Part shown: positions 39,150 to 52,932 of the stretch, one piece after another | Layout: each line of letters begins with the position of its first letter | How positions within the stretch are numbered: position 1 is the first letter of the stretch | Assembly (NCBI GenBank): GCA_964651115.1 | Contig: CAZYXJ010000001.1 | Coordinates: 106,509 to 170,508 of the forward strand | Reading direction: 5' to 3' | From: an uncultured Candidatus Saccharibacteria bacterium | Lineage (GTDB): Bacteria; Patescibacteriota; Minisyncoccia; Phycocordibacterales; JACOZG01 | Length of the DNA: 64,000 bases | Notes under the pieces: generated by a model | The model's input: the letters and a program-made list of their open reading frames with translations, nothing else | The model's database searches: none | What the model was told of the DNA's origin: nothing | Program-made: the position numbers and the translations under genes

Positions 39150-39197
39150 TTGGGAGGGTATAATGGGTTGATAGAAAGAATATTCCGCGATAGCTCA
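39150..39197 (+). repeat. 48-bp direct repeat copy 1 (tRNA-Asn promoter plus first 14 nt of tRNA)
   Basis: ttgggagggTATAATgggttgatagaaagaatattccgcgatagctca. It is repeated at 39227-39274 with a single base difference. Confidence 0.8.
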
Positions 39198-39226: not shown

Positions 39227-39260
39227 TTGGGGGGGTATAATGGGTTGATAGAAAGAATAT

Positions 39261-39333
39261 TCCGCGATAGCTCAGTTGGTAGAGCGCCTCGCTGTTAACG
39301 AGGATGTCCCAGGTTCGAGCCCTGGTCGCGGAG
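39261..39333 (+). tRNA. tRNA-Asn (anticodon GTT)
   Basis: A manual cloverleaf fits: acceptor tccgcga/tcgcgga, D-arm gctc-agttggt-agagc, anticodon arm cctcg-ctGTTaa-cgagg, variable loop atgtc, T-arm ccagg-ttcgagc-cctgg, discriminator G. There is a TATAAT 19 nt upstream. Confidence 0.85.
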
Positions 39334-40959
39334 CCTGACTGACAAAAGTGGCACATGATGCCACTTTTGTCGTATGTGGCCTGGCTTTTTAGAGGTTCGA
39401 GCGTGCTCTATTTCCTGCATAATAGCTTCTCGTGCTTTTATGAGGCTCAAAAAGAAAGAACTGTAAGAAAGCTGGATCTTTTTGTCTGAAATGGTGAGGT
39501 TCGAGCCAAGGCATGCGAGTATCGCTCTTTTGGTCTTTTCATCGCCATTTGCGTACCAAAGGTGGGCGTAGCAGGCAAAGTCAAAGGTTTGCTCTGAAAG
39601 TTCAGCCCATTGTTCTACAGCCTTATTCTTGATCTTCAACTCGTCCTCAAGAAGGCCCTTCTTTCTGAGTAGTTCAGACTTTAAGGACTGGTATTCCTGT
39701 TCGCCGATAACGGTTCGATTCTTGTTTGATGGTGCAGTAAAGTTAAGGGTCAAAGATTGCAGCTGCTGCGTTACTTCTTCACATTCCTTGTGCTTGGTCC
39801 TTATTGCGATTGAATCACTCTCAGCCTCATTCTTGCGGACCTCATGGACATGGCGAACCGCCCAGTCACGATACTCCTCTGAAATTCTTATATCTTTAAG
39901 GATCGCCCCGATCTGTAAGTGTAGTAGTTTTACTTCCACATGCTTTTCAGTACAGCCAGCGTCATATCTCTTTTTGGTGCAGTTGTAGTAAACGTAATGA
40001 TGGACGTTACCGTTCTTGCAACGCTTTACTTTGGCTTGGGCAGTGATGCTGCAACCACAGGTGGCACATTTCATAAGACCAGTAAAAGCAAACATCCTCT
40101 CTTCGTGTCGTGGGCGCGGTTGGTTGGTCCTACCCATAACCTTTTGTACCTGATCAAATTCTTCTTTGGTTACCATCGGCGCGTGCGCTCCTTTATTCCA
40201 ATTACCACTGTGGAGCGGAAACTCAAACCAGCCATAATAAAATGGGTTACCGAGGACTGCATAAATTGCTGATCGAGAAAGATGTTCACCGCCGATATTT
40301 CTACGTGGGACCGTTCGGAGATTCAACTGTTTTCTTGAAATATTCCAAATCTGGGCCATTGAATAATTGCCGGTAAGCGCAAGATCAAAGAGTCTTCGGA
40401 CCAACGGGAATCTATCAGGATCTTTTTCTAAGGTCTTGTAACCCTTTTGTTTATTGGGTGTGTTGAGATATCCAATCGGCGCACCGCTTGGCATCCAACC
40501 ATCTCTCACTTTCTTTTGCAGACCTCGCTTTACATTCACTGATAGGTCTCGAATAAACTGATTGGCCATGCCAAGTTCTACTTGCATCATGAGCACGTTG
40601 TCTGTTGGGTAATAGGTTCGACCGAAGGTAACGATTTGAGATACGGCACTCTGCTGCAACATCCAACTTATCTGGCCACCATCGACAGGATTACGGGCTA
40701 GGCGGTCCAGTTTCCAGCATAGGATGCCATTGGCTTCGCCTTTATAGATCCTCTCAAGCATTGAGTTGAATACCTTCCTACCTGGTTTCTTGGCTGATTG
40801 TGATTCTTCAAGGATATCCAGGATGTGTAAACCTTGATCCTTTGCAATCTTCAAAAGCTCGTCTTTCTGGGCATCTATGGACGCTGCCTGGCGATCTTCT
40901 GCCTCGCTGGATTTACGAGCATAGAGGAAGTATTTAATTGGTTGGTTTGTCTGGTTCAT
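39295..40959 (-). CDS. Large serine recombinase (integrase/resolvase family)
   Basis: 554 aa. The N-terminal catalytic domain has YARKSSEAEDRQAASIDAQ (nucleophile Ser region) and a recombinase domain, followed by a zinc ribbon (CATCGC...CTKKR) and a coiled-coil. The C-terminal ~25 codons read through the hairpin and tRNA 3-prime end on the opposite strand. Confidence 0.8.
   Translation of the reverse strand: MNQTNQPIKYFLYARKSSEAEDRQAASIDAQKDELLKIAKDQGLHILDILEESQSAKKPGRKVFNSMLERIYKGEANGILCWKLDRLARNPVDGGQISWMLQQSAVSQIVTFGRTYYPTDNVLMMQVELGMANQFIRDLSVNVKRGLQKKVRDGWMPSGAPIGYLNTPNKQKGYKTLEKDPDRFPLVRRLFDLALTGNYSMAQIWNISRKQLNLRTVPRRNIGGEHLSRSAIYAVLGNPFYYGWFEFPLHSGNWNKGAHAPMVTKEEFDQVQKVMGRTNQPRPRHEERMFAFTGLMKCATCGCSITAQAKVKRCKNGNVHHYVYYNCTKKRYDAGCTEKHVEVKLLHLQIGAILKDIRISEEYRDWAVRHVHEVRKNEAESDSIAIRTKHKECEEVTQQLQSLTLNFTAPSNKNRTVIGEQEYQSLKSELLRKKGLLEDELKIKNKAVEQWAELSEQTFDFACYAHLWYANGDEKTKRAILACLGSNLTISDKKIQLSYSSFFLSLIKAREAIMQEIEHARTSKKPGHIRQKWHHVPLLSVRLRDQGSNLGHPR
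39341..39371. other. Perfect 13-bp hairpin immediately 3-prime of tRNA-Asn
   Basis: gacaaaagtggca-catga-tgccacttttgtc. It is a possible tRNA terminator and/or recombination site, and lies inside the 3-prime end of the recombinase reading frame. Confidence 0.6.
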
Positions 40960-41878
40960 GGTTTATTTGTGTGTCAGGTATGTGGGTCTCATTTACTGGC
41001 TCTGCCCATTTTTCACCGTTTTTTAACGGTGGTTCCGTAGTATCTGATTGGATACTGCCGACTTCCCGTAAATTTCCCGCTATATCGGGAAAATTATCTG
41101 CGTTTTCTGTGGGTCTCACTACCTCACTTAAGGGTATCTTTCCTTCATAGGCTGTCTCAACGACATCATGCCCAGAAGGCTCTTGAATAGCAACTTGTTC
41201 CGGTAGCTGCCACTTATGCATTTTCCTCTTTAGAACATCTCCGATGCTAGTTAAAGAATTCGGGGATTTATTTATTTGGTTAGTTAGAGTATCTACGTTA
41301 ATACTACGGTTTCTACGCTTTCGGATACTACGGAGATGTATATCTGGATACTGCGCAACTGAATCTTTAAGTTTTAGACGCCCTTTAATATGGGCTATGC
41401 TTTTCCAAAAATCGACCGACTTAAAGTAGTACAGGTTCAGTGTTTTGAATCCGCTCTTTGTCTGGACCACACCAAGAATGCTGCACTCAACAAGAAGTCG
41501 GACCGCATTGGCTACATAGTTTCTGTTTTTCTCTCCGGTTAGGTCCTGGATGGTAGTCAGACTTGGCCACGCAACTTGTGTTTGCGTATTTCCATGCTTC
41601 AGAATGGCGCAGTAGACAAGTGTACAAATCTTTGGCAACTTTTCCATATAGCCATGCTCCACAAATTCGTTCTCTACGAAAAACCGAGTTGGTTTTCTCT
41701 TGCCGCGTAACAGGGACCGGTCAATCTGATTCTTCAGTTCCTCGATCTTCGCCTTGTGGTAGGCATGGGCTATCTCCACTTTGTTCTTCTTCGGGTCCAA
41801 CCACTCGAGGAAATACTTCTCGTTGTTGTTCATATTCTTTAAGCCACACCTTTTTGACAGGCCGATAGACAAGGTCAA
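40934..41878 (-). CDS. Hypothetical winged-helix DNA-binding protein (possible replication initiator)
   Basis: 314 aa with a central wHTH-like segment (WPSLTTIQDLTGEKNRNYVANAVRLLVECSILGVV). It sits downstream of the iteron-like repeat region. The start codon is uncertain, with several in-frame Met. Confidence 0.4.
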   Translation of the reverse strand: MTLSIGLSKRCGLKNMNNNEKYFLEWLDPKKNKVEIAHAYHKAKIEELKNQIDRSLLRGKRKPTRFFVENEFVEHGYMEKLPKICTLVYCAILKHGNTQTQVAWPSLTTIQDLTGEKNRNYVANAVRLLVECSILGVVQTKSGFKTLNLYYFKSVDFWKSIAHIKGRLKLKDSVAQYPDIHLRSIRKRRNRSINVDTLTNQINKSPNSLTSIGDVLKRKMHKWQLPEQVAIQEPSGHDVVETAYEGKIPLSEVVRPTENADNFPDIAGNLREVGSIQSDTTEPPLKNGEKWAEPVNETHIPDTQINHEPDKPTN

Positions 41879-41990
41879 AGACGGTTAGGAGTTTAGTTGC
41901 TTCTTCAACGAGGACTTCATCGGATGGGACCTCGCCATGTTCCTGGCGGTAAATTTCCCGATATTCGTCTAGCGCTTGTTTGCTTAGCAT
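41721..41990 (-). CDS. Hypothetical small protein
   Basis: 89 aa with a helical N-terminal 50 aa. It overlaps the next ORF substantially, so the extent is uncertain. Confidence 0.3.
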   Translation of the reverse strand: MLSKQALDEYREIYRQEHGEVPSDEVLVEEATKLLTVFDLVYRPVKKVWLKEYEQQREVFPRVVGPEEEQSGDSPCLPQGEDRGTEESD

Positions 41991-42049
41991 GATGATGTAG
42001 TTGTTTGGTTAATAATTTCGACCGTTATTGAGATCTTCCTGAAAACAGA

Positions 42050-42098
42050 AAGAGCTGAGTCCCAGTTGCAAGTGACTCAGCTCTTTCCGTGCAACTGG
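42050..42098. other. Two mutually exclusive perfect hairpins (12-bp and 9-bp stems)
   Basis: Stem A aagagctgagtc/gactcagctctt (42050-61 with 42074-85). Stem B ccagttgca/tgcaactgg (42062-70 with 42090-98). B's 5-prime arm lies in A's loop. Confidence 0.6.
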
Positions 42099-42124
42099 AA
42101 GTGTTATGTATCGTAGACCCAATT

Positions 42125-42475
42125 TCGTGCAAAATTGCGTGCATTACTTTTGGACCGTCCGATTTGTCTATTCTGAAGCCCTATTAATCCCTAACTGCAG
42201 GAATTACTTCGGACCAAAGAACTACTTAATCCTAGTGCTTAAAAAAAGCAAAACATGGTGTATTACTTTTTATGGCTAGGATTATGGGTTTATCCTAAGA
42301 GATATAAAGTTCCTAACTGTAGGAATTACTCTTACCTCTTAGAACTGTCTTAATCCTATTGTCAAAAAAGTGAAAAATGCGTTGCATTACTTTCATCTCC
42401 TTAGACAGTCATATCCTAAAATCAAATGTGGTGCATTTCGGTGTGCATTACTTTTCCTTTAGGACCAGGTAAGTA
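42125..42475. repeat. Iteron-like degenerate direct repeats (~122-bp units) in a 590-bp AT-rich intergenic region
   Basis: TG(C/T)ATTACTTT occurs at 42140, 42259, 42383 and 42444. CCTAACTG(C/T)AGGAATTACT occurs at 42189 and 42312. There are recurring TTAATCCTA and GGACC motifs. Confidence 0.65.
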
Positions 42476-42586
42476 TGAGGTCCCAATAAGTGCAAATTAG
42501 TGGGTATTGGCCGAGACAACGTAAAAAGCCCTGAATAGGCTTGGAAAAGCGTACACAGGGCAATTTAGGGGCTAATTACGGGCCTT

Positions 42587-45568
42587 TTACTTCTTCATTT
42601 TCTTAATCACATACTCGAATACGCGCTCTTGCACAAACTTCTTAAGCTCAGGACTCTGGTCTAACTTTTGATACAAGCTAAAGTGTTTATCGAGCACGCT
42701 GACGAGCTCATCTTGGAACAGCTGGTCGAATTTCAACTTCGCCGCATCCTTGCTGTTGTTCATGACTGAACCCTGAAGAACCTCGCTTTCAAGAAGTCGC
42801 TTACTTAGATCGTTGAGAATAACCCTGTCTCCATCATTGAAGTTTGTACCATACCGATCATTAACTTCTTTGATGATTCGTGACAAAGCGTCCCTTTCAT
42901 CTTCAGAAAGAGTCTTGGCATCACCACCACCCATCGGTTCGATAATACCTTCTGCATTTTCAAGCTGAAGATGCATCTCACCCTTCTTTTCTATTCTGTA
43001 TGTTTCCATGTCTATTGCTTGGAGTACTTCGTATGGCAATGGATTTTCTCTCTTTGGAAGCTTTCTAATCAAGTACTTCAAGAAGATAAATAACTTTTCT
43101 AATTGTGGATCTTCAAACGTCACAATCTGAGATATGAAAGCGTATTTTTTAAGGTAGTCGAAAGCTGTAGATTTGAAACCTTCCATTTCTTCTTCGGTAA
43201 GATTCTCATTGTTGATTCGAGAGACTACACTGTCAATGATGTGATTCAACTTGTCAGGAGTTGCTCGGGAGTAAAGTTCATCAATAAATCCATTCACTTC
43301 AAAGTCGGTGAAGAATTTAAAGCCTCGCACGTCGCGCTCAAGATCATGCAGGATATTTGGGTCAGTCGCCTCTGATAGGACCGTAGTTGTGTAATAAGGC
43401 TGGAAAGCTTCTTTGATGTCATCTGTTTGATTTACGAAATCTAGCACAAAGGTGTCGTCTTTTCCGTACGTAGTTCGGTTGAGACGAGACAAAGTCTGGA
43501 CCGCACTTACACCGCCAAGTTTCTTATCTACGTACATCACCGACAAGAGTGGCTGGTCAAATCCAGTCTGGAACTTCTCAGCTACAATCAAGAATTTATA
43601 ATCATCATTCTTAAATTCTTCAGCAGTTTGACTCTCTGGGACCTTATTCATCTGTCCTTCCGTATACTCAAGCTTAGTATCAACATCCTTAACTGTTCCC
43701 GAGAAAGCCACGAGAGCTTTATGCCCATATCCTTTTTCTTTGAGGTACTTATCAAACGCGATCTTATATCTGACCGCATGAAGTCGTGACTTGGTTACTA
43801 CCATAGCCTTTGCCTTTCCATTGATAAGTGAGGAAATCTTTTCTTCAAAGTGCTCCACCATAATAGCCACCTTCTTATCGATTGCATGTTCGTGTCGCTC
43901 GACATAGCCAACCATGAGTCGCTGGGCTTTCTTTTTATCGAACTCAGGGTCATCCTCAACTTTCTTCAAAAGCCCAAAGTAGGTTTCGTATGTTGTGTAG
44001 TTTTTGAGCACATCAAGAATAAACTTCTCTTCAATCGCTTGCTTCATTGAGTAAAGGGAGAAGGGGCCGAATTTACCAGTTAAAGGATCTTCAGTACCAA
44101 AGAGTTCAAGTGTTTTTTGCTTTGGAGTTGCAGTAAATGCAAAGAATGACAGATTTGGAGACGATACCTTTCGGGCTTTCATGCGTTCAACAATCTGATC
44201 TTCAATTGTTTTGAATAATTTCTCTTCTTCCTGGCTTTCTTTTTCAGCTTCATCGAGAGTGAGGACCTGGCGTAGATCGGCGGCTGATTCTCCTGATTGA
44301 GATGAGTGTGCCTCGTCAATAATGACAGCAAACTTTCTACCCTCAACTTTTTCTATGGCATCCACAATAACCGGAAACTTCTGCAAAGTTGTAGTGATAA
44401 TCTTTACACCCGACTCAAGGGACTCCTTGAGCTCTTTACCACCGTTTTCTACATGCTTAACCAGGCCAGTAACTTGGCTAAAGCTTTTAACTGTATCTGA
44501 AAGCTGTCTATCGAGTACACGTCGATCAGTTACAACTATCACGCCGTCAAAAACATTCTTTCCTTCAGTGTCGTGGAGCTCGGCCAATCGGTGTGCAGTC
44601 CAAGCGATAGTATTACTCTTTCCGGAACCAGCGCTGTGCTGGATTAGGTAGTTCTTACCTGAGCCATGTATCCTGGTATCCTCGACAATGCGTTTTACCG
44701 TCTCGAGCTGGTGATATCGAGGAAAGATAACTTTTTCTTCTTTACGCTTTTTACCATTCTTATCTTCCTTTTCTTCAGTCACTTCTTGTATGAAGTTTCC
44801 AATCAAATCAAAGATGCTATCTTTGGACCAGATTTCTTCCCAGAGATAGTGAGTCTTATATTTGCCCTTAGGTGCTTCAGGATTGCCTGACGACCCTTTA
44901 TTGCCCTTATTAAAGGGTAAGAAGTAGGTAGTGAGACCGGTGATACGGGTCGTCATATACGCCTGTTCTGTATCGAGCGCAAAGTGTGTGAGGCATCGCT
45001 TGAATGTTATAAGCTTCTCCTTTTGGTCGCGGTCCGTCTTGTACTGCGAAATGGCATTGATAACATTTTGGCCTGTGAACTGATTTTTGAGTTCAGAAGT
45101 AAACAGAGGGAGTCCATTCACAAAGATCACCATGTCTATGGAGTTCTCGTTTTTAGCGCTGTACTTTACCTGACGCATTACGCTCAAAATGTTCCCTGCG
45201 TAGTCTGCAAGGGTCTCAGGATTCTTGTCATTCTCTGGCTTGAAGTATGCAAGGCGGATTATGACACCTCGATCCTTTACTCCCTCCCTGAGCACACTGA
45301 GAAGACCACGAGAAAGAAGCTCTTCATCTAACCTAGCCAAGAATCTTTCAGCGACACTGTCTCCATATTGTTCAACAAGTTTTTCCCAATTATCTTTCTG
45401 GGTACTCTGAATAAACTCCAGGACCAGTTCAGTATCCATGCAGAGTTCCTTGTTGTATGAAGAATTAGAACGCTTTCGGTAGTTATGCAGACTTACAAGC
45501 TCCTGCTCGATAAATTCTTCAAATCCTGATTCTTTTGTATTGGTTTTTGTTGTCATGTTATTCGGCAT
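42587..45568 (-). CDS. hsdR: Type I restriction enzyme R subunit
   Basis: 993 aa with an N-terminal nuclease region, SF2 motor motifs (HSAGSGKS Walker A, VIIDEAHSSQ DEAH box) and a C-terminal helical domain. Confidence 0.9.
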   Translation of the reverse strand: MPNNMTTKTNTKESGFEEFIEQELVSLHNYRKRSNSSYNKELCMDTELVLEFIQSTQKDNWEKLVEQYGDSVAERFLARLDEELLSRGLLSVLREGVKDRGVIIRLAYFKPENDKNPETLADYAGNILSVMRQVKYSAKNENSIDMVIFVNGLPLFTSELKNQFTGQNVINAISQYKTDRDQKEKLITFKRCLTHFALDTEQAYMTTRITGLTTYFLPFNKGNKGSSGNPEAPKGKYKTHYLWEEIWSKDSIFDLIGNFIQEVTEEKEDKNGKKRKEEKVIFPRYHQLETVKRIVEDTRIHGSGKNYLIQHSAGSGKSNTIAWTAHRLAELHDTEGKNVFDGVIVVTDRRVLDRQLSDTVKSFSQVTGLVKHVENGGKELKESLESGVKIITTTLQKFPVIVDAIEKVEGRKFAVIIDEAHSSQSGESAADLRQVLTLDEAEKESQEEEKLFKTIEDQIVERMKARKVSSPNLSFFAFTATPKQKTLELFGTEDPLTGKFGPFSLYSMKQAIEEKFILDVLKNYTTYETYFGLLKKVEDDPEFDKKKAQRLMVGYVERHEHAIDKKVAIMVEHFEEKISSLINGKAKAMVVTKSRLHAVRYKIAFDKYLKEKGYGHKALVAFSGTVKDVDTKLEYTEGQMNKVPESQTAEEFKNDDYKFLIVAEKFQTGFDQPLLSVMYVDKKLGGVSAVQTLSRLNRTTYGKDDTFVLDFVNQTDDIKEAFQPYYTTTVLSEATDPNILHDLERDVRGFKFFTDFEVNGFIDELYSRATPDKLNHIIDSVVSRINNENLTEEEMEGFKSTAFDYLKKYAFISQIVTFEDPQLEKLFIFLKYLIRKLPKRENPLPYEVLQAIDMETYRIEKKGEMHLQLENAEGIIEPMGGGDAKTLSEDERDALSRIIKEVNDRYGTNFNDGDRVILNDLSKRLLESEVLQGSVMNNSKDAAKLKFDQLFQDELVSVLDKHFSLYQKLDQSPELKKFVQERVFEYVIKKMKK

Positions 45569-52587: not shown

Positions 52588-52932
52588 TTATCGTCCAAAT
52601 GGGATTTTATTTCGTATAAAAAAGTCTGAAACCCTTTCTTGATCTCCCTTGCAGCCCACATGCCACACCTCAATAGTCCGGGCATGATTCATCGACTTGT
52701 AGTCATAAATCGTTACGACAGTCGGCTTAGGGCCAGGCAGTCTGAAAGCCCATTCCACCTGAGTCTTCCAGTCACCCGATTTCCATGGACCATCCTTAAA
52801 CCTGTCGTGTGGCTCTCCAAACTGGGCGACAAGGTCATGGTAGGTACAAATCGCGTACCCTATAAAACCTGTGTGGTTTACTTCGTTTGGACGTGCGTTT
52901 TTATATCCTTTTTTCATGGCACGAACGAACAT
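52588..52932 (-). CDS. Hypothetical protein
   Basis: 114 aa with no recognisable motifs. Confidence 0.3.
   Translation of the reverse strand: MFVRAMKKGYKNARPNEVNHTGFIGYAICTYHDLVAQFGEPHDRFKDGPWKSGDWKTQVEWAFRLPGPKPTVVTIYDYKSMNHARTIEVWHVGCKGDQERVSDFFIRNKIPFGR

Follow-up and report, generated by a model that had tools for sequence, protein, structure and literature searches.

In several iteron-containing theta replicons, among them P1 (incC-repA), pSC101 and F, the promoter of the rep gene lies inside the repeats. Rep-ori modules are also found in integrative satellites and islands which replicate after excision: the pri-rep-ori of SaPIs (Staphylococcus aureus pathogenicity islands) and other PICIs (phage-inducible chromosomal islands), Vibrio PLE (phage-inducible chromosomal island-like elements) and SGI1 (Salmonella genomic island 1). 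PLE reportedly combines a large serine recombinase, a RepA_N initiator and non-coding iterons. In phage lambda the iterons lie within the O gene. The mRNA of rep genes can be controlled by leader attenuation, as in pT181 and plasmids of the pIP501/pAMbeta1 type, and tandem units also make up the sopC centromere of F (12 copies of 43 bp). In Paracoccus plasmids pAES7, pMARC3 and pMOS2, HTH_36 is the only recognised Rep domain, and the REP modules of this genus carry iteron-like direct repeats in an oriV upstream of or adjacent to their HTH_36 Rep genes (PMC3832669). Here we describe a non-coding module composed of a phased repeat array and a two-helix leader, which precedes the small ORF (open reading frame), HTH_36 and serine recombinase genes of an element inserted at tRNA-Asn. 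It was found in a 64-kb stretch, called the window below, of contig CAZYXJ010000001.1 from an uncultured Candidatus Saccharibacteria bacterium. The array is probably the replication origin of the excised element and at the same time the operator of its own operon.

The module fills the 596-bp gap (41991-42586, minus strand) between the stop codon of a type I restriction R subunit gene (hsdR) and the start of the small ORF. It is described on the minus, or gene, strand because all flanking genes are on that strand. An earlier note, made from the letters of the window, had reported an AT-rich region of ~590 bp at this place: the gap is real, but its AT-richness is only mild (39% GC versus ~42% in the island and ~52% in the flanks). 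Four copies of TG(C/T)ATTACTTT are indeed present on the plus strand (42140, 42259, 42383 and 42444), with no further copy in the 64 kb and a chance expectation of 0.07. So are the two copies of the 19-mer CCTAACTGYAGGAATTACT (42190 and 42312, 122 bp apart; chance expectation 0.00) and, as recurring motifs, TTAATCCTA (two copies), ATCCTA (four) and GGACC (three). The organisation of these motifs is different from that proposed. The four 11-mers are separated not by ~120 bp throughout but by 119, 124 and 61 bp, and the two degenerate tandem units with partial flanking units are replaced by six units of ~61 bp of two alternating types. The core ATTACT occurs six times (42143, 42203, 42262, 42325, 42386 and 42447; spacings 60, 59, 63, 61 and 61) and ATCCTA (42229, 42292, 42353 and 42413) has the same period. 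Since two unit types alternate, there is an apparent super-period of 122 bp, and k-mer autocorrelation peaks at ~61, ~122 and ~184 in every related locus.

Units of type A have the form AAAGTAATGCAC-N7-TTTGCAC and those of type B AAAGTAATTCCTACAGTTAGGAA; some relatives include further types such as AATTGATTCCGCAGA. Units are joined by TAGGA(T)-N9-11-(A)TCCTA or GGTCC. Measured from AGTAAT, TGCA lies at +5 and +17, TAGGA at +33, TCCTA or GGTCC between +47 and +52 and the following box between +59 and +63, and these fixed offsets create the dyads TAGGA-N9-11-TCCTA at the junctions. Within type A units, the sole feature resembling a pair of iterons is the TGCA(C) doublet, with its 12-bp spacing. 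The copies within the window are degenerate (~50-75% identical to one another). Across loci, exact AGTAAT boxes number from one to six (none in L004) and are 55-68 bp apart (mode 59-63); when degenerate units are included there are about 2-7 units per locus. In every locus with an exact box, the last one is located 56-60 nt from helix b of the leader (see below). Conservation is concentrated in short invariant boxes, placed at constant offsets and separated by variable spacers, which is the pattern expected for arrays of protein-binding sites. Candidate binding boxes are AAAGTAATGCAC, AAAGTAATTCCTAC and TAGGA-N9-TCCTA.

The module is found, with the same gene order beside tRNA-Asn, in more than 25 Patescibacteria loci (16 from genomes and ~10 further ones from metagenomes). 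The recurring order is variable cargo, non-coding module, small ORF, HTH_36, serine recombinase and tRNA-Asn. The module begins a few bases past the stop codon of whichever gene lies upstream and is present even if that gene is divergent. The cargo differs from locus to locus, and the window and L001 have cores that are 98% identical behind unrelated upstream genes. The box AAAGTAAT(G/A)CA, which is the gene-strand form of the motif first noticed, is present even in loci with 40-58% protein identity, and the box AAAGTAATRCA is nearly confined to the module within each ~12-kb locus. The metagenome scan used a degenerate 17-mer and was loose: most of its 120 loci are chance matches and ~10 are real. 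In reference genomes, HTH_36 homologues occur only in Patescibacteria metagenome-assembled genomes labelled Paceibacteria or Saccharibacteria. A DNA similarity search with the region gave no match in E. coli genomes, plasmids or phages; in IMG/VR the DNA pattern gave two chance matches and the protein profile none. The earlier view of the element as plasmid-derived is therefore left with no plasmid, phage or IMG/VR relative. No description of the module or of the element family was found in the literature searched, and both are apparently undescribed in these databases and publications.

Three loci are deletion or rearrangement variants. In L005 (5700-6010) the whole module has been lost, and a homologue of window ORF 52588-52932 has been joined to the 3' portion of the small ORF; in L102 (minus strand, ~2395-2480) and L057 (3095-3179) a start like that of the small ORF appears within ~40 nt after the left block, in another gene context. 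ORF 52588-52932 had been considered as a relative of the small ORF, but the translations are unrelated and the BLAST match in L005 reflects the deletion variant.

On the cargo side, the array is preceded by a left block whose conservation exceeds that of the proteins. Within it lie a terminator-like hairpin, a degenerate box, ACTAATTTGCAC, and an inverted repeat, GGACC-N12-GGTCC; the 17-mer CCCTGTGTACGCTTTTC of this block occurs once in the window. The hairpin stem is altered yet complementary in L004 (TAACCCC/GGGGTTA), L012 (GCCCC/GGGGC) and both L016 and L077 (AAGCCCC/GGGGCTT), and it is retained even behind a divergent upstream gene (L003 and L018). At the start of the block (42556-42586, minus strand) are three sub-repeats of ~11-12 nt, GGCCCgTAATTA, GCCCCTAAATT and GCCCTGTGTAC, which coincide with the sharp border between variable cargo and conserved core; they may provide a protein-binding or recombination site for cargo exchange. 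The left block was also examined as an inverted-repeat partner of the recombinase-proximal end, that is, as an att arm. This was rejected: only AGCCC(C)TA is common to the two, and it does not co-vary between right ends of the window (WIN) type and those of the L010 type.

At the other end, the last unit of the array carries a promoter-like site, and the arrangement TTTGCA/TTTTCA, 16-17 nt, TATAAA is kept in most of the 22 loci aligned (alignment A2). This is the putative promoter of the operon, with transcription predicted to start a few bases before helix a (about 42100-42104). The promoter and terminator scanner did not flag it because its consensus demands T at position 6.

The leader that follows can form two helices, a and b, whose arms interleave (a-b-a'-b') with linkers of 1, 3 and 0 nt. 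The short stem is of 9 bp, as first described. The long one is not a 12-bp stem but has 16-17 bp including one G-U, with 14 contiguous Watson-Crick pairs. That only one of the two can form is also correct, but not because they share sequence: they have no nucleotides in common and exclude each other sterically by interleaving. With such linkers a complete pseudoknot would be sterically impossible and the helices would be alternatives. All 25 pairs considered (9 in helix a and 16 in helix b) are paired in 22/22 sequences. Compensatory changes affect nine of them (four in helix a, five in helix b), and L084 carries additional compensatory variants in both helices; in register-shift controls pairing drops to 35-49%. 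Non-Watson-Crick pairs are G-U or U-G only, at five positions, and never A-C. Since these would be mismatches on the opposite strand, the structure belongs to the gene strand and is most simply RNA. The covariation argues that the leader helices form a conserved RNA structure.

Computed folding of a transcript ending at a' gives helix a (-13 kcal/mol), and that of the full leader gives helix b (-35 kcal/mol, z = -5.8), with a 12-nt loop. Helix b is followed by a run of 2-5 T depending on the locus, of which the first two are invariant. Because the interleaved helices cannot coexist, the leader is probably an attenuator or a stability switch, and helix b is a plausible site of termination. With Rfam 15 covariance models (38.5-60 kb, E up to 1) tRNA-Asn was the sole match, and no leader or array family was found. 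An antisense promoter opposite the leader was considered and discarded, as the distance between the conserved GGTCGA box and a possible -10 varies. Between the hairpin of the leader and the ATG lies another conserved box, in which AAGGTCGAA hardly changes among 22 loci; its distances to the hairpin and to the ATG vary. No Shine-Dalgarno-like sequence precedes the small ORF. With a terminator, a promoter-like site and an RNA leader switch all inside it, the region is at least partly regulatory, which was one of the functions first suggested for it.

The gene for the winged-helix protein is, as had been pointed out, a neighbour of the array: it starts ~160 bp downstream of the gap, after the small ORF. 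Its product matches only HTH_36 in Pfam (PF13730; E = 2e-8, 34 bits versus a cut-off of 25); there is no Pfam match to Rep_3 and the protein has a single winged helix. Close homologues are few (61 clusters, all unnamed), and a profile of 25 family members retrieved 1010 relatives among 1.84 billion representatives. In a sample of 87 relatives, all have HTH_36 and nine have DnaD_N. Among PHROGs, phrog_270 ("replication initiation protein") is matched by 70 of the 87, two families labelled "replication initiation O-like" by 59 and 55, and "DnaD-like helicase loader" by 45, with strong E-values. By these matches the protein is kin to replication-initiator families (lambda O-like and DnaD-like). 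Homology to a non-replicative regulator, which the earlier note had kept in view, is not what the profile relatives point to, since most of them match initiator, lambda O-like or DnaD-like PHROGs.

A first AlphaFold2 model built from 25 close homologues was poor (predicted local distance difference test, pLDDT, 47), and a second, built from 87 diverse relatives, was used. It has pLDDT >90 for residues ~20-150, which form a long helix and a winged helix, and its C-terminal half is disordered. In Foldseek searches the top PDB match is DnaD-N (2v79), and the RepA_N initiators 4pql, 4pt7 and 5kbj (staphylococcal) are also listed; the best matches among viral models (E = 8e-7 to 8e-5) are "replicon initiation protein", "replication protein O" and "GpO N-terminal". 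The disordered half (40934-41400) includes motifs that are invariant across 40%-identical homologues: NVDTLTNQ, VAIQEPS, PVIAGNLRE, DTT and PPFxNGEK. These are candidate docking sites for host replication or recombination proteins. No repeats, and hence no lambda-style iterons, were found inside the core genes, which leaves the upstream array as the only candidate site.

More distant HTH_36 relatives (~25% identity) are found in loci with the order small ORF, HTH_36, in some cases an Xis-like HTH_17 gene, and tyrosine integrase; the small ORF sometimes overlaps the HTH_36 start. A small protein and an HTH_36 protein, together with an integrase of either recombinase type, thus form a general core of integrative elements. 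The AAAGTAATGC box is not a family-wide site: it is found once in L143 (2361) and is absent from six other loci. In L143 the upstream region also carries a triple 10-bp tandem repeat, AGTGACTAAA.

Taken together, these features suggest, with a probability that we estimate at about 0.5, that the array is both the origin of the excised element and an autoregulated operator, coupled to an attenuator-like leader. The terminator-like hairpin of the left block would probably insulate the module from cargo transcription. The phased ~61-bp units would act as repeated binding sites, in which AAAGTAAT(GCAC / TCCTAC) boxes alternate with TAGGA-N9-11-TCCTA dyads. The boxes are most likely bound by the adjacent lambda-O/DnaD-like winged-helix protein, and possibly also by the small protein or by a factor of the host. 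The nucleoprotein complex so formed would be both the replication origin of the excised element and the operator of its own operon, the promoter of which would be embedded in the last unit, as the rep promoter is within the iterons of some plasmids. In the transcript, helix a (9 bp) would form first and would give way to the far more stable helix b (16-17 bp, then U's) once the 3' arm of the latter has been made. In this way the leader would keep the operon for the small protein, initiator and recombinase low until a signal favours read-through.

The main and serious rival to an origin is a purely transcriptional switch, in which the array is an extended operator or enhancer-like platform for the HTH_36 protein, the small protein or both, and together with the leader sets the recombinase operon on or off without any replication. 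We regard this as rather unlikely. In its favour, the promoter-like site lies inside the last unit with a AAAGTAAT box abutting its -35, operator-like dyads mark the unit junctions, and the two-state leader directly precedes the operon. Other observations weigh against the origin as such, and those on unit size, DnaA boxes, the unwinding element, helicase and primase genes, MarR/PadR-type folds and the position of distant relatives also favour the switch. The composite unit of ~61 bp is an odd size, unlike classical iterons of 17-22 bp. In 22 modules there is neither a DnaA box (TTATCCACA, at most one mismatch) nor a distinct or extended AT-rich unwinding element, the richest 25-bp windows (72-88% AT) being scattered within units. 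The core has no helicase, primase or loader gene, and no circular or extrachromosomal copy of the element was found. The assignment of the protein as an initiator is transitive, because its own PHROG match is weak (E = 0.009) and its PDB fold matches are also weak (E ~2e-3 to 2e-2) and mixed with MarR/PadR-type regulators. Its distant relatives do not have the box of the module and adjoin Xis-like and tyrosine integrase genes, a position in which regulators are also common. As to expression, the promoter of the window is weak (TACATA, versus TATAAA in most relatives), and termination at helix b is uncertain because the T-run is short and variable; the terminator scanner did not flag this helix. 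Against a mere switch, however, three to eight phased units over 200-450 bp far exceed what a simple operator needs. In addition, the nearest annotated families are replication initiators and helicase loaders rather than repressors, and the array is more conserved than the protein in loci with only 40% protein identity.

The array could instead be another DNA site of the excised element: a packaging site (pac/cos-like) for a helper phage, a transfer origin (oriT-like) or, as the earlier note also proposed, a partition site. Some centromeres, such as F sopC, typically consist of phased tandem repeats of 40-60 bp, the element carries defence cargo as phage satellites do, and with so few core genes the element may depend on a helper. 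Yet Pfam and PHROG scans of the window island and related loci gave no match to a terminase, capsid, relaxase, coupling protein or ParA/ParB, the conserved core is of three genes only, relatives are missing from IMG/VR and from phage and plasmid collections, and the array is consistently accompanied by a single DNA-binding protein, which is initiator-like; such a role is improbable. We give still less weight to the idea that the array is transcribed and acts as RNA, either as a long structured leader or as one hairpin RNA per ~61-nt unit. On the gene strand the array of the window folds better (z -5.0 to -6.7 against shuffles) than on the other strand (about -2.7), and some unit stems have G-U pairs on the gene strand, but across 17 loci the asymmetry is weak (mean z -4.0 versus -3.1; gene strand lower in 11). 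As self-complementarity is alike on the two strands, the array would consist of DNA dyads and not of a strand-specific RNA. Moreover, the inner hairpin of type B is not kept among loci, conservation is in short boxes and not in paired columns, the array has a terminator before it and a promoter-like site after it, and no Rfam family matches it. Finally, the degeneracy of the units might suggest a non-functional repeat, arising by chance or from a decayed insertion sequence (IS), miniature inverted-repeat transposable element (MITE) or CRISPR-like remnant. The comparative data refute this reading, to which we attach almost no probability: the motifs are far more frequent than chance predicts, and position, phase and boxes are kept in more than 25 loci of different genomes. 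An origin in IS or MITE fragments, which had been named as the alternative from the start, does not agree with an array that is single-copy in the window, stands in a constant place beside the same genes in all loci, lacks terminal inverted repeats and target duplications and has no similar DNA in E. coli, plasmid or phage collections. A CRISPR array would have hypervariable spacers; here boxes are conserved throughout units that are 50-75% identical, and no cas domain occurs among the Pfam-scanned island genes.

How does an origin of this kind compare with described systems? By analogy, the module would work most like iteron replicons with the rep promoter in the repeats and like the rep-ori modules of satellites. 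As in iteron replicons and the Paracoccus plasmids, a gene for a winged-helix, initiator-type protein lies downstream of tandem direct repeats of variable number. The promoter-like site is embedded in the gene-nearest repeat, as in the former, and HTH_36 is the sole recognisable initiator domain, as in the latter. In contrast to their repeats (17-22 bp; 18-39 bp in Paracoccus), the units here are of ~61 bp and include two or more types of box together with dyads. The element is integrated and moved by a serine recombinase, and its origin is putative. Because it fails on repeat size and spacing, DnaA box and AT-rich element, the module is not the classical theta-type iteron origin that had been proposed, and we class it as a variant rather than a member of that group. 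With lambda O and SPP1 G38P-type replisome organisers (DnaD-like), the HTH_36 protein shares an N-terminal winged-helix fold, its sequence neighbourhood and a flexible remainder whose short conserved motifs possibly recruit host replication proteins. Unlike in lambda, the array is upstream and the gene itself carries no repeats, and no P/DnaC-like loader or helicase gene is adjacent.

Like SaPI/PICI, PLE and SGI1, the element is integrative and combines an initiator-type gene beside non-coding repeats with anti-phage cargo; its integrase is a large serine recombinase as in Vibrio PLE. It differs from them in the absence of packaging and mobilisation genes and of a known helper, in its host phylum and in having no similarity of origin sequence. 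The leader, like those of pT181 and pIP501/pAMbeta1, is conserved upstream of replication (here also recombination) genes and offers two exclusive structures, the stabler one followed by U's. In the module, however, exclusivity results from interleaving and not from a shared segment, the U-tract is short and variable, no counter-transcript promoter was identified, and there is no Rfam family. The phased tandem units, tens of bp long and with a dyad inside each, recall sopC of F, but here the units are of two to four types, the core has three genes, and ParA/ParB-type proteins have no match among the genes scanned.

The Patescibacteria (Candidate Phyla Radiation) are a huge and mostly uncultured group whose mobile elements are barely described and for which, to our knowledge, almost no genetic tools exist. 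The present data define a family of integrative elements that carry defence genes and share a core of three genes and a control region that is compact and conserved. They also provide testable parts: defined boxes, a candidate origin, a candidate promoter, a covarying leader absent from Rfam and a serine recombinase with a target mapped to the 3' end of tRNA-Asn. Should the array be an origin, the notion of an iteron origin would be widened and a replicon would become available for these organisms; should it be no more than a switch, it would be a clear case of joint control of a serine recombinase by a DNA array and an RNA leader. We also put forward, tentatively and with considerable doubt, that the module is a self-contained replication-and-expression control unit specific to Patescibacteria mobile elements. 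It would comprise a "super-iteron" origin of ~61-bp composite units, a minimal initiator with a single winged helix that recruits the host replisome through the motifs of its disordered tail, and a new class of interleaved two-helix leader gating the initiator and recombinase operon. If so, the module, the two small genes and the recombinase would form a ready replicon and integration toolkit for the phylum.

Table 1. Positions of the module, its parts and neighbouring features (window coordinates unless a related locus is named)
Feature	Position	Strand	Remarks
Type I restriction R subunit	42587-45568	minus	Its stop codon bounds the gap
Conserved left block	42456-42586	minus	Begins a few bases from the hsdR stop; DNA near-identical behind unrelated upstream genes in L001-L018, L036, L042, L077, L078, L084, L089, L114, L141
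Terminator-like hairpin	42516-42542	minus	AAGCCTATTCAGGGCTT then TTTACGTTGT; terminator scan, window and L007
Six-unit array	42103-42455	minus	Gene-strand order A-A-B-A-B-A, units ~61 bp
Unit U1 (approximate)	42394-42455	minus	
Unit U2 (approximate)	42333-42393	minus	
Unit U3 (approximate)	42270-42332	minus	
Unit U4 (approximate)	42211-42269	minus	
Unit U5 (approximate)	42151-42210	minus	
Unit U6 (approximate)	42103-42150	minus	
Promoter-like site in last unit	42105-42133	minus	TTTGCA (42133-42128), 17 nt, TACATA (42110-42105)
Two-helix leader	42098-42040	minus	Order a, b, ACT, a', b', TTTTCA
Helix a, 5' arm (a)	42090-42098	minus	CCAGTTGCA; pairs with 42062-42070, 9 bp
Helix b, 5' arm (b)	42074-42089	minus	CGGAAAGAGCTGAGTC; pairs with 42046-42061, 16 bp
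Helix a, 3' arm (a')	42062-42070	minus	TGCAACTGG; within apical loop of helix b
Helix b, 3' arm (b')	42040-42061	minus	GACTCAGCTCTTTCTG then TTTTCA
Conserved box	42016-42023	minus	GGTCGAAA; between leader hairpin and start codon
Small ORF	41721-41990	minus	89 aa, first ~55 aa conserved; starts at 41990
HTH_36 winged-helix protein	40934-41833	minus	299 aa from ATG 41833; initiator-like
Large serine recombinase	39295-40959	minus	Resolvase + Recombinase + Zn_ribbon_recom, 554 aa
tRNA-Asn (GTT)	39261-39335	plus	Insertion site; 3' end of recombinase gene abuts
Module-bearing loci	L001-L004, L007-L016, L018, L036, L042, L077, L078, L084, L089, L114, L141, L142		
Distant HTH_36 loci	L143 2528-4613, L150 2729-5023, L151 2725-5074		
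Group I introns	L002 8546-8872, L007 8565-8829, L010 8564-8818, L015 8468-8744, L018 8557-8794	minus	

The small ORF has no Pfam match and is found only in this element family. Its tail, where it runs into the beginning of the HTH_36 gene in a different reading frame, lacks conservation. The recombinase is 66-98% identical to its homologues and occupies the same position in all loci. It adjoins tRNA-Asn in the window and in L001, L003, L004, L013 and L016. The window and L001 diverge exactly at the 3' end of this tRNA (GGAGCC), which places the crossover at its extreme 3' end and therefore makes the last 15-30 recombinase residues host-dependent. Here the recombinase ORF (39295-39375; compare L001 8380-8520) reads antisense through the terminator hairpin of the tRNA and into the tRNA itself. 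The right end of the element thus maps to the tRNA 3' terminus; near 58.8-59 kb only a shift in GC marks the other end, and no displaced 3' half of tRNA-Asn was found at the far side of the island. These features identify the element, as judged from its genes, as integrative, with a large serine recombinase acting at tRNA-Asn and with defence and metal-resistance cargo.

Two further observations concern the tRNA-Asn site. A direct duplication of 48 bp (39150-39197 and 39227-39274, 98% identical) spans the promoter region of tRNA-Asn together with the first 14 nt of the tRNA, and its upstream copy runs on into unrelated sequence; it may be the scar of an earlier recombination at this site. In five loci a group I intron (RF00028, 54-92 bits) directly follows a tRNA-Asn-like 3' part beside the recombinase. 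We infer that tRNA-Asn is interrupted by an intron in L002, L007, L010, L015 and L018, which would explain why ARAGORN found no tRNA in them. The tRNA-Asn of the window has no intron.

The low-GC cargo island (42587 to ~58.8 kb) encodes a type I restriction-modification system, DUF2130, a Fic protein and copper-resistance genes. Between the restriction-modification subunits lie an extra gene of 413 aa and DUF2130, and the copper set consists of an ATPase, DsbD and a cupredoxin. At the same place, relatives carry SIR2 with DUF87/HerA, GmrSD or an EcoRI methylase. The cargo appears to have been shuffled, since in L007 the copper genes are 86-93% identical at the amino acid level while the core is 58-67% identical.

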